Below, in pieces: positions 744 through 4,532 of a DNA stretch of 25,216 bases (within the stretch, counting starts at the first letter, position 1; every line of letters starts with the position of its first letter). The position numbers and the translations under genes are program-made. Source of the stretch: Chloroflexota bacterium. GTDB lineage: Bacteria > Chloroflexota > Anaerolineae > UBA7937 > B3-Chlor. Location of the stretch: positions 1-25,216 of the forward strand of contig JAUWYD010000001.1 of assembly GCA_030616025.1 (NCBI GenBank). Direction: 5' to 3'. Under the pieces are notes generated by a model. The model was given only the letters and a program-made list of their open reading frames with translations, was not told where the DNA came from and did no database searches.

Positions 744-2102
744 CTAGCCTCCTCCGATGAAGGCCATCTCTTGTACAATGCTGAGAATGGGGTCCACCAG
801 CAGTCCAGGAGCCAGCCCTAGGAGCAAGCATAGCGCGGCCAACGACAGGGTCATGACCGTTACCAGCAGGGGTTCCCGTACCGCTTTCAATTGCGGCGAA
901 GGCTGAAGCATCAGGGACAACGATCTCACATATCCCAAAACCACACCGGCCCCAGCCAGTAGCAGGGCCCCCTGGTACAGAGGACTGTCTCCAGGGAGGG
1001 ACCGATACACAAGCCAGCGGGTGGCGAAGCCATTGAATAGGGGGAAACCACCCAGGGCGAGACCACCCACGATGTAGCCGACGATGCTCCCTGGCGTCCT
1101 CCTTAGGGCCTCTCGCAATGTGGAAACAGAGCCGTCGTTGAGGTATGTGCGTAGCGTTCCCAGACTCATAGCTAGCAGCAGCACCAGCAGAGAGCGGTTG
1201 ACGATGTGGGCCAGAGCGCCGGTAGTGCTCGTCAGAGAGCCCGTTCCTAACCCTACCAAGACGAAGCCCATGTCGCTGATAGCAGCGTAGGCCATCAGGC
1301 GTCCTGGGTCCCGTTGGGCGAAGGCGAACACCCCGCCCACGAGCGCTGTCAATAGGCCGGATATCGAGATCACTAACAGCATTGGTGAGCCTGTGGTCAA
1401 CCAGAGATGGCTGTTGAGCACACCCAGGAGAAGGACCAGGACTACCGGGTTGAAGATACAGATGAGCGAAGCACTCGCCGCGAAGGGGGCCCCAGCGGCT
1501 ACTGCGGGTAACCAGGAGTGAAAGGGTGCCGCTGCCAGTAGGATGCCGAACCCCACGGATAGGGCGATGACTGTGAAACGAATCAGAAGGAGGTTGTCGG
1601 GATGCAGAGCGTAGCTCTCTGCCAGCCAGGATACCACGAGCAGGCACGGGATGGCCATTACGAGGGGGACTACGTATCCGATGGCGGTCCCCACCGGGGC
1701 GGGACGTCTTCCGTGGATCATGAACACAAAGACGAGTGCTGCCATCTCCAATAGCAGGACGGATATGAGGAAGGTGCGGATCATGATCGCTCCACTGAGG
1801 AGGCCCAGGATGGCCAAGAGAGAAGGTATGAACGCCCAGCCTTGAGGTATCTGCCACGCATACAGGATCATGAGACTGGCCAGGCTCAAGAGGAAGATCA
1901 GTATGAAGCCGCTGAGCTCGTCCAGCATGAGCTCACGTCCCAAGATGTATGCTGGTTCGCCCAGGGGCGCCTGACTGCAAATCCCTATCAGCGTCAACGT
2001 CGTCGCCAGTGAGACGAAAACGGCTGCAGTCCAGTAGCGCCTGAGGAAGTAGACCGGTACTGCCATTGTCAAAGGGACGAAGATCAGGAGAATGAGGATC
2101 AT
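744..2102 (-). CDS. Antiporter-like (Proton_antipo_M fold) membrane subunit, MrpD/NuoN/HyfF-like, with degenerate charged residues
   Basis: 452 aa, highly hydrophobic. Family motifs APFHSWLP, RLMAYAAISDMGF and GFPLFNGFATR are present. ATGA overlap with the upstream gene. Confidence 0.8.
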   Translation of the reverse strand: MILILLIFVPLTMAVPVYFLRRYWTAAVFVSLATTLTLIGICSQAPLGEPAYILGRELMLDELSGFILIFLLSLASLMILYAWQIPQGWAFIPSLLAILGLLSGAIMIRTFLISVLLLEMAALVFVFMIHGRRPAPVGTAIGYVVPLVMAIPCLLVVSWLAESYALHPDNLLLIRFTVIALSVGFGILLAAAPFHSWLPAVAAGAPFAASASLICIFNPVVLVLLLGVLNSHLWLTTGSPMLLVISISGLLTALVGGVFAFAQRDPGRLMAYAAISDMGFVLVGLGTGSLTSTTGALAHIVNRSLLVLLLAMSLGTLRTYLNDGSVSTLREALRRTPGSIVGYIVGGLALGGFPLFNGFATRWLVYRSLPGDSPLYQGALLLAGAGVVLGYVRSLSLMLQPSPQLKAVREPLLVTVMTLSLAALCLLLGLAPGLLVDPILSIVQEMAFIGGG

Positions 2103-2770
2103 CTTCTGTCTTCCTCGACAATGACGGTCAGCTGAGCCGTAGTCAGGTAGCTTATGGCCAAAGCCATGAGGATATTGACGACGCCTAGTAGTGCGGCCAC
2201 GCTCAAGCTCTTCTCAAGAGTGGCGAAGAGAACTTCGAAGCCCGCCTGGAAGGTAAGGAGACCCAGGCCAACCTTGAAGGGATCTCTACTCAGGACGACA
2301 GTAAGCAGACCTATCCCCACCAACCAGTAGCAGGCCTGGGAGATGCCGAGTGGGTGGTCAACGAAGGGGTGTCTGGTGCCCAGGGCGTAGCTCACCACTG
2401 CCGCCAGGAGGACCAAGAGGAGGCGAAACCACAGGTTCATCGGAAAGATATCCAACACGGTGCTGACGGGGCCTTGTTCATGGTGGGCCCCCTTGATTGT
2501 GGGTTCTCTTCCCCAATGCACGCGCCGCGCTGTGAGGTAGAAGATCACACAAATCATAGCTCCTACGATCACTTTGACCAGCGCCACTCGCAAGGGTATC
2601 ACCCTAGCGAGAAGTAAGCTCACAAGGACATATTGAGCGAGCAAGGCCCAGAGACTGAGCCTCCAGTCCTCAAGGACGATGATGACAGTAGCCGTGATGA
2701 GGAATCCCAGCATGAGCTCAAGGTATGAAAGGGAAGACAGGCTAACGAAAATGTCCTGCAGTACGTCCAT
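2099..2770 (-). CDS. HyfE-like membrane protein (about 7 TM; C-terminal half NuoK/MrpC-like)
   Basis: 223 aa with about 7 hydrophobic segments. Contains LLAQY, a Lys in TM3 (ALVKVIVG) and SRDPFKVGLGLLTFQAG, resembling the HyfE/NuoK pattern. SD-like GAGGGGT upstream. Lies between two antiporter-like genes. Confidence 0.6.
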   Translation of the reverse strand: MDVLQDIFVSLSSLSYLELMLGFLITATVIIVLEDWRLSLWALLAQYVLVSLLLARVIPLRVALVKVIVGAMICVIFYLTARRVHWGREPTIKGAHHEQGPVSTVLDIFPMNLWFRLLLVLLAAVVSYALGTRHPFVDHPLGISQACYWLVGIGLLTVVLSRDPFKVGLGLLTFQAGFEVLFATLEKSLSVAALLGVVNILMALAISYLTTAQLTVIVEEDRR

Positions 2771-2779
2771 TCTTACCCC

Positions 2780-4474
2780 TCAGCTACTCAGGAGTAGAAG
2801 TGTGACCAAGGTAGCGAACAGCAGAATCCAGCCCAACGAGTGTCTCCCCTCGAAGAACCCTCCCAACTGTTCCAAGATTGTGGCTGTCCGTTGCGCTGTC
2901 CAGTCCAGGGCGCGATATAGCCATCCCATTTCGGCGATCATCTGGAGTGTCTCCAGGGAGACACCTGCTTTGGTCACGATGGTTTCCCCCTTGCGGTACA
3001 TCAGGTATCCCAGTAGGAGCGACAGCAGTGTGCCGGCAAGAAGAACCAGAGAAAAGGATGGCTCTTGCGAGTAGATCAGGTCTGGTAGGGCTGGCAGGGT
3101 GGAGAGCCCACCAGGCGGCCCTACCATGCGCCCTATCAATGGAGGATGCAGGCCCAGGATCAGCAGAAGGATAGCCAAGCCGCTCATGCTCGCCAGCAGC
3201 AGAGGCCTTATCGCGCCCTGGTCTGTACCTGGAGAAGTAGGTTCCAGAAACATCTTCGATAGGGGTGCCAGAAGAAAGCTGTTGCTTAGCAGACTTAGAA
3301 GGATGAGGGGGCCAAGGCCTAGGTCCCACAGGGACTCGTAGAGGAGCCAGCGGCTTGCGAACCCTACTGTGAGAGGGGTACCCACTAGTGCGGCAACGGC
3401 CGCAAGTGTGCAGCTTCGCGCCCAGAGGCCATAGGGATGTGGCATAGGGTCACGGGAAGTCATATGGCCTAGAAAGAGGAGACTCAGAGCCAGGGTCAGG
3501 CTGATGACCTGCGACGATATAATGGCCGCGGAATGTGGTGCGGAGATGGCGCTCGCGAGGGTCAGATAGCCCACCTGGTTGAGAACTATGTAGGAGGCAG
3601 ATCTCCTCAGACTCGACTCAAACCAGAGAGGAAATGGACTCAGGACAAGAGCCAAGCTTCCCAAGAACAGGGCCGCTTCCTTCCCTGGCAGAGTTGCCAC
3701 AGACGCCAAGGTTAGCATCCGAGCCAGCAAATACCCACCCGCGCTCAAGGGAGTGACGTACCATACGATTAGGGTAGGGAGACTCATCTCCACGTCGACG
3801 GGCAGGGCAACGAACGCCGGATACAGCCCCACGCGCATCAGGGCGGCCAGCATGGCAAGGGAGATGACCTTCGTCGGGAGAGGCGTTGCCTGGAGAGACA
3901 GGGACGCGCCTCGCGCTTCGAGCAGGAGCAGTGCGGCCAAGAACAGGGCCAGTCCAGCGAGGTAGTTGATGAGCAGCAACCTGACCCCCATTCGAGAGGC
4001 TGCCTTTCCGCGGTGCAGGAGGGCAGTGAGGAACAGCAGCGCCAGGTCAAGGAAGCCCCAGCTGAAGCAAAGGGTGACCAGGTCGGCTGAGAGGATGAGG
4101 CTGACTCCCCCGGCGGCCAGCAGAAAGATGGCGCCGTAAGGATGACCACGCTCATCCTCTGGGATGAGGAAAGCACGCTGCGAGATGATCGCTACCAGCG
4201 TTATGAGGCCTATCAGCGACACGAAGAGAAGTGACAAGTTGTCCATATAGTAGCCGAGCTGCACACCGAAGAGGGGCGCAGGGCGCCAGACGGAGAAGTT
4301 AATGCTGTTTGGCTGATAGCGGTAGAGGAGTAGGGAGAAGAGAAGGCAACTGCCTGCCAGGATGGCGGCCAAGACGTTGGTAATCTGGACGCGGGCTGTC
4401 CTCTTCGTCAGCGGCAGCAGGACCGCTCCCAGAAGGAGGATGATCACGAGCAAGAGGGGTGTTGCGAGGGGCAT
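2780..4474 (-). CDS. Antiporter-like membrane subunit, NuoL/MrpA/HyfB-like, with C-terminal lateral-helix region and degenerate charged residues
   Basis: 564 aa from ATG 4474 (SD AGGAG upstream; the track start at 4495 is probably too far upstream). Motifs DNLSLLF, SADLVTLCFSW, GYLLAR, NQVGYL and GTPLTVGFASR are present, followed by an amphipathic C-terminal stretch and a final TM. Confidence 0.8.
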   Translation of the reverse strand: MPLATPLLLVIILLLGAVLLPLTKRTARVQITNVLAAILAGSCLLFSLLLYRYQPNSINFSVWRPAPLFGVQLGYYMDNLSLLFVSLIGLITLVAIISQRAFLIPEDERGHPYGAIFLLAAGGVSLILSADLVTLCFSWGFLDLALLFLTALLHRGKAASRMGVRLLLINYLAGLALFLAALLLLEARGASLSLQATPLPTKVISLAMLAALMRVGLYPAFVALPVDVEMSLPTLIVWYVTPLSAGGYLLARMLTLASVATLPGKEAALFLGSLALVLSPFPLWFESSLRRSASYIVLNQVGYLTLASAISAPHSAAIISSQVISLTLALSLLFLGHMTSRDPMPHPYGLWARSCTLAAVAALVGTPLTVGFASRWLLYESLWDLGLGPLILLSLLSNSFLLAPLSKMFLEPTSPGTDQGAIRPLLLASMSGLAILLLILGLHPPLIGRMVGPPGGLSTLPALPDLIYSQEPSFSLVLLAGTLLSLLLGYLMYRKGETIVTKAGVSLETLQMIAEMGWLYRALDWTAQRTATILEQLGGFFEGRHSLGWILLFATLVTLLLLSS

Positions 4475-4503
4475 TTTCTCTCCTGTGGCAGGCAATCGAG
4501 CGA

Positions 4504-4532
4504 ATTTTAAGACAGGTTGTGGCGTTTGTCAA
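4504..4532 (-). promoter_or_regulatory. Near-consensus sigma70 promoter for the three-gene antiporter-like operon
   Basis: Minus strand reads TTGACA (4532-4527), a 17-nt spacer, then TAAAAT (4509-4504), about 30 nt upstream of ATG 4474. Confidence 0.8.

Follow-up and report, generated by a model that had tools for sequence, protein, structure and literature searches.

A conserved, antiporter-like membrane operon of three genes in uncultured Anaerolineae, a proposed relative of the Mrp core

Ions are moved in complex I, Mrp antiporters and membrane-bound hydrogenases by antiporter-like subunits, and how charge movement is coupled along the membrane in these assemblies is debated. We describe a variant of this theme encoded in the first 25,216 nucleotides (hereafter, the window) of contig JAUWYD010000001.1 from a Chloroflexota bacterium of the class Anaerolineae (GenBank assembly GCA_030616025.1). 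Its minus strand carries three tightly packed genes, here called A, B and C (collectively, the trio), for two antiporter-like subunits and a putative connector between them. The closest described system by sequence and architecture is the Mrp core (MrpA N-domain, MrpD, MrpC and MrpA C-domain), and by gene order and the fold of B it is the HyfDEF module. On its conservation across genomes, the trio is a real variant of the antiporter-module theme with a function that is proposed only; we put at about even the chances that the predicted products form an autonomous, Mrp-core-like heterotrimer with non-canonical ion chemistry. With three subunits and approximately 135 kDa, it would be, to our knowledge, the smallest self-contained assembly of the antiporter-like kind. 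We found no description of the trio family in the literature, and public annotations of its genes read ‘proton-conducting transporter membrane subunit’, ‘formate hydrogenlyase subunit 3/MnhD’, ‘hydrogenase-4 component’ or ‘hypothetical protein’.

Operon layout and predicted products

The trio and its flanking promoters are arranged as follows (window coordinates):

4504–4532, minus strand: predicted sigma-70-type promoter of the trio (TTGACA, 17 nt, TAAAAT); 11 of 12 consensus matches, conserved in 10 relatives
2780–4474, minus strand: gene A, 564 amino acids, NuoL/MrpA-type antiporter-like subunit (PF00361 at 34.7 bits; AlphaFold2 fold match)
2099–2770, minus strand: gene B, 223 amino acids, predicted HyfE-fold connector subunit (AlphaFold2 fold match to HyfE and Rv0085)
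744–2102, minus strand: gene C, 452 amino acids, MrpD/NuoN/HyfF-type antiporter-like subunit with a single lysine (PF00361 at 62.6 bits)
709–737, minus strand: predicted promoter of the downstream gene (TTGCCA, 17 nt, TATAAT, with an extended TG); 11 of 12 consensus matches

Gene A starts at an ATG (position 4474) preceded by the Shine-Dalgarno sequence AGGAGAG, and its longest open reading frame (ORF), from a TTG at 4495, would encode 571 amino acids. Its TGA stop (2782–2780) is followed after 9 nt by the ATG of gene B (2770), and the stop of B and the start of C form an ATGA overlap (2102–2099). A promoter scan placed the −35 hexamer of the trio promoter (TTGACA) at 4532–4527 and the −10 hexamer (TAAAAT) at 4509–4504; promoter-like sites number 6 per 6 kb, compared with 2.0 ± 1.5 in shuffled sequences. 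We also compared the region upstream of gene A in 10 relatives with A N-termini 35–90% identical to that of the window. The promoter hexamers, much of the spacer and a GGAG Shine-Dalgarno are conserved among them, and the DNA farther upstream is unrelated. The retention of the hexamers and Shine-Dalgarno between differing flanks suggests that the trio promoter is more than a chance match. The second promoter begins 7 nt past the stop of gene C and marks the 3′ boundary of the unit. As predicted from these elements, the trio is its own transcription unit, a self-promoted operon bounded downstream by a second promoter. Indeed, a first-pass annotation made from the letters of the window had reported the three gene sizes, the 9-nt gap, the ATGA overlap and the two promoters as we find them here. 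In the same alignment (minus strand, 4476–4532), the spacer (AAACGCCACAACCT...) and a block in the 5′ untranslated region (GATT...GCCACAGGAG) are also kept in the 10 relatives and the remaining intergenic DNA is not. The spacer and block may belong to an operator, or to a leader element that overlaps the promoter.

The product of gene A exceeds the gathering cut-off of the Proton_antipo_M domain (PF00361, 21.5 bits) weakly, with 34.7 bits compared with 298 bits for the NuoL of the same genome, and several of its homologues fall below detection by Pfam. Its nearest sequence outgroup is MrpA (E value of 1e-10) and its best Mrp match in NCBIfam scores 43 bits against a curated cut-off of 937. The NCBIfam matches of A and C are all far sub-threshold and scattered over Mrp, Nuo, Hyf and Ehb models. 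The AlphaFold2 model of A, with a predicted local distance difference test score (pLDDT) of 78.5, matches MrpA, NuoL, ND5 and NdhF (Foldseek E value of approximately 1e-13; template modelling scores of 0.65–0.73) and aligns to NuoL, ND5 and MrpA across approximately 620–660 alignment columns. The model ends in two helices (residues 496–515 and 518–538; local pLDDT of only 52–56) and a transmembrane (TM) helix (547–563), a putative short lateral helix with its anchor. Gene C also codes for a protein above the PF00361 cut-off, again weakly (62.6 bits compared with the same 298 bits for NuoL). Its best sequence matches in the PDB are MbhH (1.4e-17) and HycC (1.3e-16), and its best NCBIfam matches are MrpD models (88.5 bits against a cut-off of 564).

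Gene B codes for a protein with no match in Pfam, NCBIfam or PDB sequences, PF00420 included, and a Foldseek search of its model against the PDB returned no match at an E value of 0.001 or lower. The AlphaFold2 model (pLDDT of 85) has as its top matches in the AlphaFold Swiss-Prot library the HyfE protein of E. coli (E value of 3e-4, probability 1.0, template modelling score of 0.62–0.64, 205 residues aligned) and Rv0085 of Mycobacterium tuberculosis (0.65–0.68), both full length; nothing else in that library is close. The first three helices superpose on NuoJ TM1–3, MbhD and the C-terminal domain of MrpA (MrpA 628–708) with Z scores of approximately 10. We describe the model as a NuoJ-TM1–3/MbhD-like half joined to a second helical half that would correspond to the NuoK-like part of HyfE. 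In E. coli HyfE this C-terminal half carries the NuoK domain (PF00420, 64 bits), which B does not. A sequence link of B to HyfE, NuoK or NuoJ was rejected, as the profile comparisons were collinear but not significant (for HyfE, hhalign probability below 1% and 5.3 bits). The family profile of gene B retrieves 1138 clusters at 50% identity. The name ‘HyfE-like’ given to B in the first-pass annotation stands at the level of the full-length HyfE/Rv0085 fold, with no sequence-family match.

Conservation and partner genes

Relatives of gene C form approximately 90 clusters with at least 39% identity, after which identity falls sharply to the 26% of ordinary family members. A sample of 401 genomes of the class includes 105 with the gene, in one copy each, and it mostly occurs in all or none of the genomes of a family. 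The 105 include an unpublished genome (G346) whose removal changes nothing. A scan of species genomes retrieved 424 relatives of gene C, the best 78 of which are all from Chloroflexota metagenome-assembled genomes (MAGs) labelled Anaerolineae, Anaerolineales, Caldilineae or Thermoflexia. The synteny of the trio, singled out for checking in the first-pass annotation, extends across these best 78 species loci. Of the 69 with enough sequence to show gene B immediately upstream of C, 68 have it there, and 51 of 56 have gene A. None of the single-contig genomes in the 401-genome sample has the trio. DNA of the window occurs in metagenomes from marine sediment, the subsurface and seawater (nine studies).

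We built a tree of A and C with E. coli NuoL/M/N, HyfB/D/F and HycC, the genome’s own NuoL and NuoM, MrpA and the nearest outgroups as references, a set that holds no Ehr, Mbh or DabB. Each protein forms its own clade (100% support, long stem) outside the NuoL/MrpA/HyfD, NuoM, NuoN, HyfF and HyfB/HycC references. Hence, nesting in a characterised clade, which the first-pass annotation had regarded as fatal to a novel system, was not seen among the Nuo, Mrp and Hyf proteins included. The internal branching orders of the A and C subtrees are congruent, suggesting that the two genes are co-inherited. Furthermore, ratios of non-synonymous to synonymous substitution rates (dN/dS) of 0.14–0.34 for A, B and C against five relatives indicate that the trio is under purifying selection.

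No NuoH, NuoD, Mrp or DabA gene was found on the window’s contig, no MrpB, MrpE, MrpF or MrpG gene was found in the trio locus or in approximately 100 related loci, and in none of these loci does the trio adjoin nuo, hyf, mbh or ech genes. This extends to the relatives the earlier claim that redox and Mrp partners are missing nearby. The genome of the window (G000) is a 69%-complete MAG with canonical nuo genes (the end of nuoH, nuoK, nuoL and nuoM) on another contig (C321, at least 5.5 kb), an indication that it has an ordinary complex I besides the trio. The same is evident in two more complete relatives, one from the window’s family (G350, 91% complete) and one from its order (G005, 96%). 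Each has exactly one gene for NuoH and one for NuoD, in a nuo operon complete with NuoL, NuoM and NuoN, and the only PF00361 genes beyond this operon are those of the trio. In G230 (95% complete, 40 contigs) we found a complete, overlapping A-B-C block and no NuoH, NuoD, NuoK or further PF00361 gene. In G238 (91% complete), B and C are adjacent and a probable A lies on a separate contig, and we found no NuoH, NuoD, NuoK or other PF00361 gene. A third genome (G353) has Mrp-like PF00361 genes, and neither NuoH nor NuoD was found in it.

These genomes bear on two simpler explanations. One is that the trio was split from an operon encoded elsewhere, which we rejected given the single complete nuo operon beside the trio in G350 and G005 and the trio genes without NuoH, NuoD or NuoK in G230 and G238. 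A matching partial operon lacking exactly the three subunits, the other finding that the first-pass annotation had said would overturn it, was searched for in relatives and not found. The other is a partnership with DabA (PF10070), rejected as well after this protein was found in none of the five trio genomes searched. The findings in G230 and G238, together with the DabA result, suggest that the trio does not depend on complex I, a group-4 hydrogenase or DabA.

The trio could still dock onto complex I or another membrane enzyme as an extra or exchangeable extension of its membrane arm. In every complex known to contain them, antiporter-like subunits pack next to one another, and a NuoH homologue is present in 60 of the 63 trio genomes that are at least 90% complete (all but G230, G238 and G353), so that an interaction with complex I is possible where both occur. 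There is also a precedent in the HyfDEF module of formate hydrogenlyase 2 (FHL-2), an add-on whose deletion lowers activity but does not abolish it (PMC13645896). However, docking has no obvious target in G230 and G238, the nuo operons of the relatives have their own L, M and N subunits, and the trio adjoins nuo, hyf, mbh or ech genes in none of the approximately 100 loci. Furthermore, the modelled A would have its own lateral helix and anchor, as expected for the terminal subunit of a self-contained arm. We consider the docking explanation unlikely. Among the roles listed in the first-pass annotation, the exchangeable arm is thus weakened by G230 and G238, and the core proposal of a stand-alone membrane-arm trimer stands.

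The distribution of MrpG (PF03334) provides a further comparison with Mrp. It was found in none of eight relatives searched from the window’s family, nor in the window’s own 69%-complete genome. Across the class sample, MrpG is present in 13 of the 105 trio genomes (G346 among the 13) and in 93 of the 296 without the trio, in counts that ignore relatedness. Among the families listed by both searches, the eight with the trio in every genome have no MrpG (0 of 30). This partial anti-correlation gives weak support to an Mrp-like role. The pattern can also be seen as a tendency to mutual exclusion at the family level: for example, all genomes of families f1, f2, f10, f20 and f29 have the trio and none has MrpG, and in f6 the trio is in 0 of 15 genomes and MrpG in 12 of 15.

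Charged axis, subunit contact and proposed function

We mapped the canonical relay of antiporter-like subunits (TM5 Glu, TM7 Lys, TM8 Lys/His, TM11 His/Lys and TM12 Lys/Glu) onto family alignments of A (n = 21, numbered from the ATG) and C (n = 39) with E. coli NuoL/M/N and HyfB/D/F. The reference residues were confirmed in the E. coli proteins (NuoM E144, K234, K265 and E407; NuoN E133, K217, K247 and K395; NuoL E144, K229, H254, K342 and K399). The relay is replaced family-wide in both subunits. In A, the TM5 glutamate is a glycine, with an aspartate (Asp143) three residues on in 20 of 21 sequences; the lysines of TM7 and TM12 are replaced by Arg214 (21/21) and Arg375 (17/21), and the His/Lys residues of TM8 and TM11 are lost. 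The TM7 lysine of C is retained in none of the 39 sequences and is a leucine in 34, the same substitution as Leu208 of HycC (bioRxiv 10.1101/2022.03.21.484881). The TM8 lysine position of C is not conserved, the TM11 lysine position is hydrophobic, and the second TM11 histidine is invariably Arg303 (39/39). The TM12 Lys/Glu is Arg362 in 35 sequences and histidine in the other four, Asp277 occupies a His/Gln/Asn position, and the TM5 glutamate (Glu119) is retained in closer relatives only. TM7 and TM12 still have the Pro/Gly motifs at which these helices are broken. Lysine is scarce throughout, with one in the 452 residues of C and seven in the 564 of A. This depletion is specific to the trio rather than genome-wide, as NuoL and NuoM of the same genome have 15 and 14 lysines.

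Models of the B-C complex point to a direct contact between the two subunits. The interaction prediction score from aligned errors (ipSAE) was 0.68 in three runs that shared at least 93% of contacts (partner pLDDT of approximately 70), and the best of three controls scored 0.00. Of 80 solved complexes, 58 attain this mark, as do 2 of 110 mismatched pairs, a calibration that is only rough here, where our own alignments were supplied. The predicted interface joins residues 158–216 of B (the last helices, with Glu179 and Glu186) to residues 112–159 of C (TM5–TM6, with Glu119). We take this face of C to be the one that NuoN, MrpD and MbhH show to NuoK, MrpC and MbhG, respectively. The model shows likeness and not proof because similar complexes have already been solved. 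We also identified one natural B-C fusion, a metagenomic protein of 576 amino acids (P0342) with a full B domain (1–221) and a shortened C-like domain (270–570). Two other apparent fusions, in loci L047 and L056, were artefacts of ORF extension, leaving P0342 as the sole true fusion.

The arrangement that we propose descends from the antiporter module common to Mrp, complex I and Hyf-type formate hydrogenlyase. C would be the middle, MrpD/NuoN-like subunit. B would be the connector, its second half packing on the TM5–TM6 face of C like NuoK on NuoN or MrpC on MrpD. The MrpA/NuoL-like A would sit on the far side of C, where its short lateral helix and C-terminal TM anchor would act as a clamp on C. 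Such an assembly would need no NuoH-type, [NiFe], MrpB/E/F/G or DabA partner. It would keep the mid-membrane charged axis of the module and change its chemistry, with arginines (which stay charged) and carboxylates in place of Lys/His/Glu. The residues of this putative axis are Asp143, Arg214 and Arg375 in A, Glu179 and Glu186 in B, and Asp277, Arg303 and Arg362 in C, with leucine at TM7 of C.

An axis rebuilt from arginines and carboxylates excludes stepwise proton hopping via lysines, and the function of the trio is probably other than standard proton pumping. The absence of a redox or other energy module would leave ion gradients as the only driving force. A gradient-driven ion exchanger or conduit has, in our estimate, a chance close to one half or slightly lower. 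The carboxylates may carry the ion and the arginines serve as fixed counter-charges. Among the unrelated cation-proton antiporters (CPA), a Lys-to-Arg change beside the ion-binding aspartates separates electroneutral from electrogenic members, a precedent suggesting that the change need not abolish transport. The most specific version of the proposal, a working, minimal and redox-independent translocator on the complex I/Mrp fold, without a lysine relay, with ion-carrying carboxylates and gating arginines, is possible but doubtful. The substrate may also be different, such as an anion or a cation moved with another stoichiometry.

Several points weigh against an autonomous, ion-moving trimer, in addition to the frequent presence of NuoH and the disregard of relatedness in the MrpG counts. 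The arrangement of the subunits combines a modelled B-C contact with a position of A taken from homology only, and the putative lateral helix of A is modelled with weak confidence (local pLDDT of 52–56). B resembles HyfE in fold and not in sequence, and matches between helical bundles at Z scores of approximately 10 can reflect a common arrangement. In 5 of 56 loci, gene A does not adjoin the other two. Furthermore, the trio has none of the subunits that form the walls of the proposed Na+ path in Mrp (MrpB, MrpE, MrpF and MrpG), and none of the 20 runs containing window DNA is an RNA run. The canonical titratable relay residues are gone except for some carboxylates, and this could equally mean that transport was lost.

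The latter would make the trio a pseudo-transporter whose fold persists for another purpose, such as scaffolding in the membrane, sensing or the handling of lipids. The loss of the Lys/His relay at TM7, TM8, TM11 and TM12 and the near elimination of lysine are consistent with this. So are the lipid and envelope genes next to the trio in several lineages (3-hydroxy-3-methylglutaryl-coenzyme A (HMG-CoA) reductase in 5 of 24 and 4 of 61 loci, UbiA-type prenyltransferases and glycosyltransferases) and the binding of cardiolipin between the lateral helix and TM7 of HycC (bioRxiv 10.1101/2022.03.21.484881). However, the replacements do not look like random decay, as arginines and aspartates are invariant at the exact canonical positions of the axis (e.g., Arg303 and Arg214) and the Pro/Gly motifs of the broken helices persist. 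The neighbouring genes also vary by lineage and are often convergent or separately promoted. We regard a loss of ion translocation as improbable. Very unlikely is a decaying relic of a Hyf-, Ehr- or Mrp-type operon drifting to loss, as the very weak Pfam scores, long branches of the A family and A dN/dS of up to approximately 0.3 might suggest, given the intact single-copy frames in 105 of 401 genomes and 424 species-level relatives, the dN/dS values well under 1 for all three genes, the many invariant columns and the conserved promoter.

An autonomous trimer of this kind would be informative in either outcome. Ion movement by the trio would reveal the relay residues that are dispensable and offer a natural experiment on which parts of the debated ‘electrostatic wave’ mechanism are required; without ion movement, the trio would exemplify the reuse of a pump fold. 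Its size makes cryogenic electron microscopy, reconstitution and mutagenesis tractable. The trio is also widespread in uncultured Anaerolineae of marine sediment and the subsurface and has no enzyme attached. To annotate its genes as ‘NADH-quinone oxidoreductase subunit’, ‘hydrogenase-4 component’ or ‘Mrp subunit’ is misleading and would inflate metabolic reconstructions of Anaerolineae MAGs.

Neighbouring genes and comparison with known systems

No neighbouring gene is conserved across the whole trio family. The gene downstream of the trio (2–697, minus strand) codes for at least 232 amino acids with a Cys-rich N-terminus and a weak match to a tetratricopeptide repeat (TPR_19), and runs off the window. 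It directly follows gene C in the window’s family only (55–77% identity, approximately 20 loci) and is absent from distant trio loci. We rejected it as a fourth core subunit given its own promoter and its conservation in a single family. On the other side, two tandem UbiA-family prenyltransferase genes (5875–7634, plus strand) diverge from the FtsJ and GNAT genes upstream of the trio. Relatives at 65% identity (L006, L042 and L043) have this block (two UbiA genes, an FtsJ-S4 methyltransferase and a GNAT gene) ahead of the trio as well.

A class-II-type HMG-CoA reductase gene (PF00368, E value of 1e-115) lies 60–200 nt downstream of C on the same strand in loci L047, L050, L052, L054 and L061 (from genomes G057, G190, G263, G344 and G004, respectively). 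In three of these five loci the reductase is followed by three more conserved genes. A link to the mevalonate pathway was rejected as a general rule because the reductase is the next gene after C in 5 of 24 long loci but in only 4 of the 61 species loci with room for a downstream gene, a lineage-specific synteny.

The Mrp antiporters (CPA3; PDB 6z16, 7d3u and 7qru) are the nearest relatives of the trio in several respects. MrpA is the nearest outgroup of A and provides its best structural matches, MrpD models are the best NCBIfam matches of C, and the N-terminal half of B superposes on MrpA 628–708 and on MbhD. Mrp also works without a redox module and has a distribution partly complementary to that of the trio, as judged from MrpG. 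The differences are in size and chemistry: Mrp has six or seven subunits and the trio three, with no MrpB/E/F/G in the locus, and the trio has Arg, Leu and Asp in place of the Lys/His/Glu relay. The scores are also far under the curated Mrp cut-offs (43 compared with 937 bits for A; 88.5 compared with 564 for C).

The trio also resembles HyfDEF of the E. coli hyf operon and P. atrosepticum FHL-2, as well as Rv0083–Rv0086 of M. tuberculosis, in the order of an antiporter-like protein, a membrane protein of approximately 220 amino acids and a second antiporter-like protein with minimal gaps. The A-B-C order mirrors hyfD-hyfE-hyfF, the model of B has the HyfE/Rv0085 fold over its full length, and C has leucine at the TM7 lysine position like HycC of FHL-1. 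Unlike the Hyf system, the trio has no HyfC, HyfG, HyfI or HyfH in close relatives (G350 and G005) beyond their single complex I set, and no NuoH-like or NuoD-like partner was found in G230, G238 and G353. HyfE has the PF00420 domain that B lacks, A is of the NuoL/MrpA type with a predicted lateral helix rather than a HyfD, and A and C are outside the HyfB/HycC, HyfD and HyfF clades.

The folds of the trio are those of the distal arm of complex I (NuoJ/K-NuoN-NuoM-NuoL), with a predicted B-C contact on the same face of C as in NuoK-NuoN and a putative lateral helix on the terminal subunit (A, local pLDDT of 52–56). Unlike this arm, the trio is encoded apart from a complete nuo operon and is present where no complex I genes were found, has two pump-like subunits rather than three, and has its relay residues replaced. 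The inorganic-carbon pumps DabAB and MpsAB are, like the trio, small PF00361-based systems without a respiratory enzyme. However, no DabA was found in the five trio genomes searched, and DabB is a single antiporter-like subunit, compared with the two antiporter-like subunits and predicted connector of the trio.

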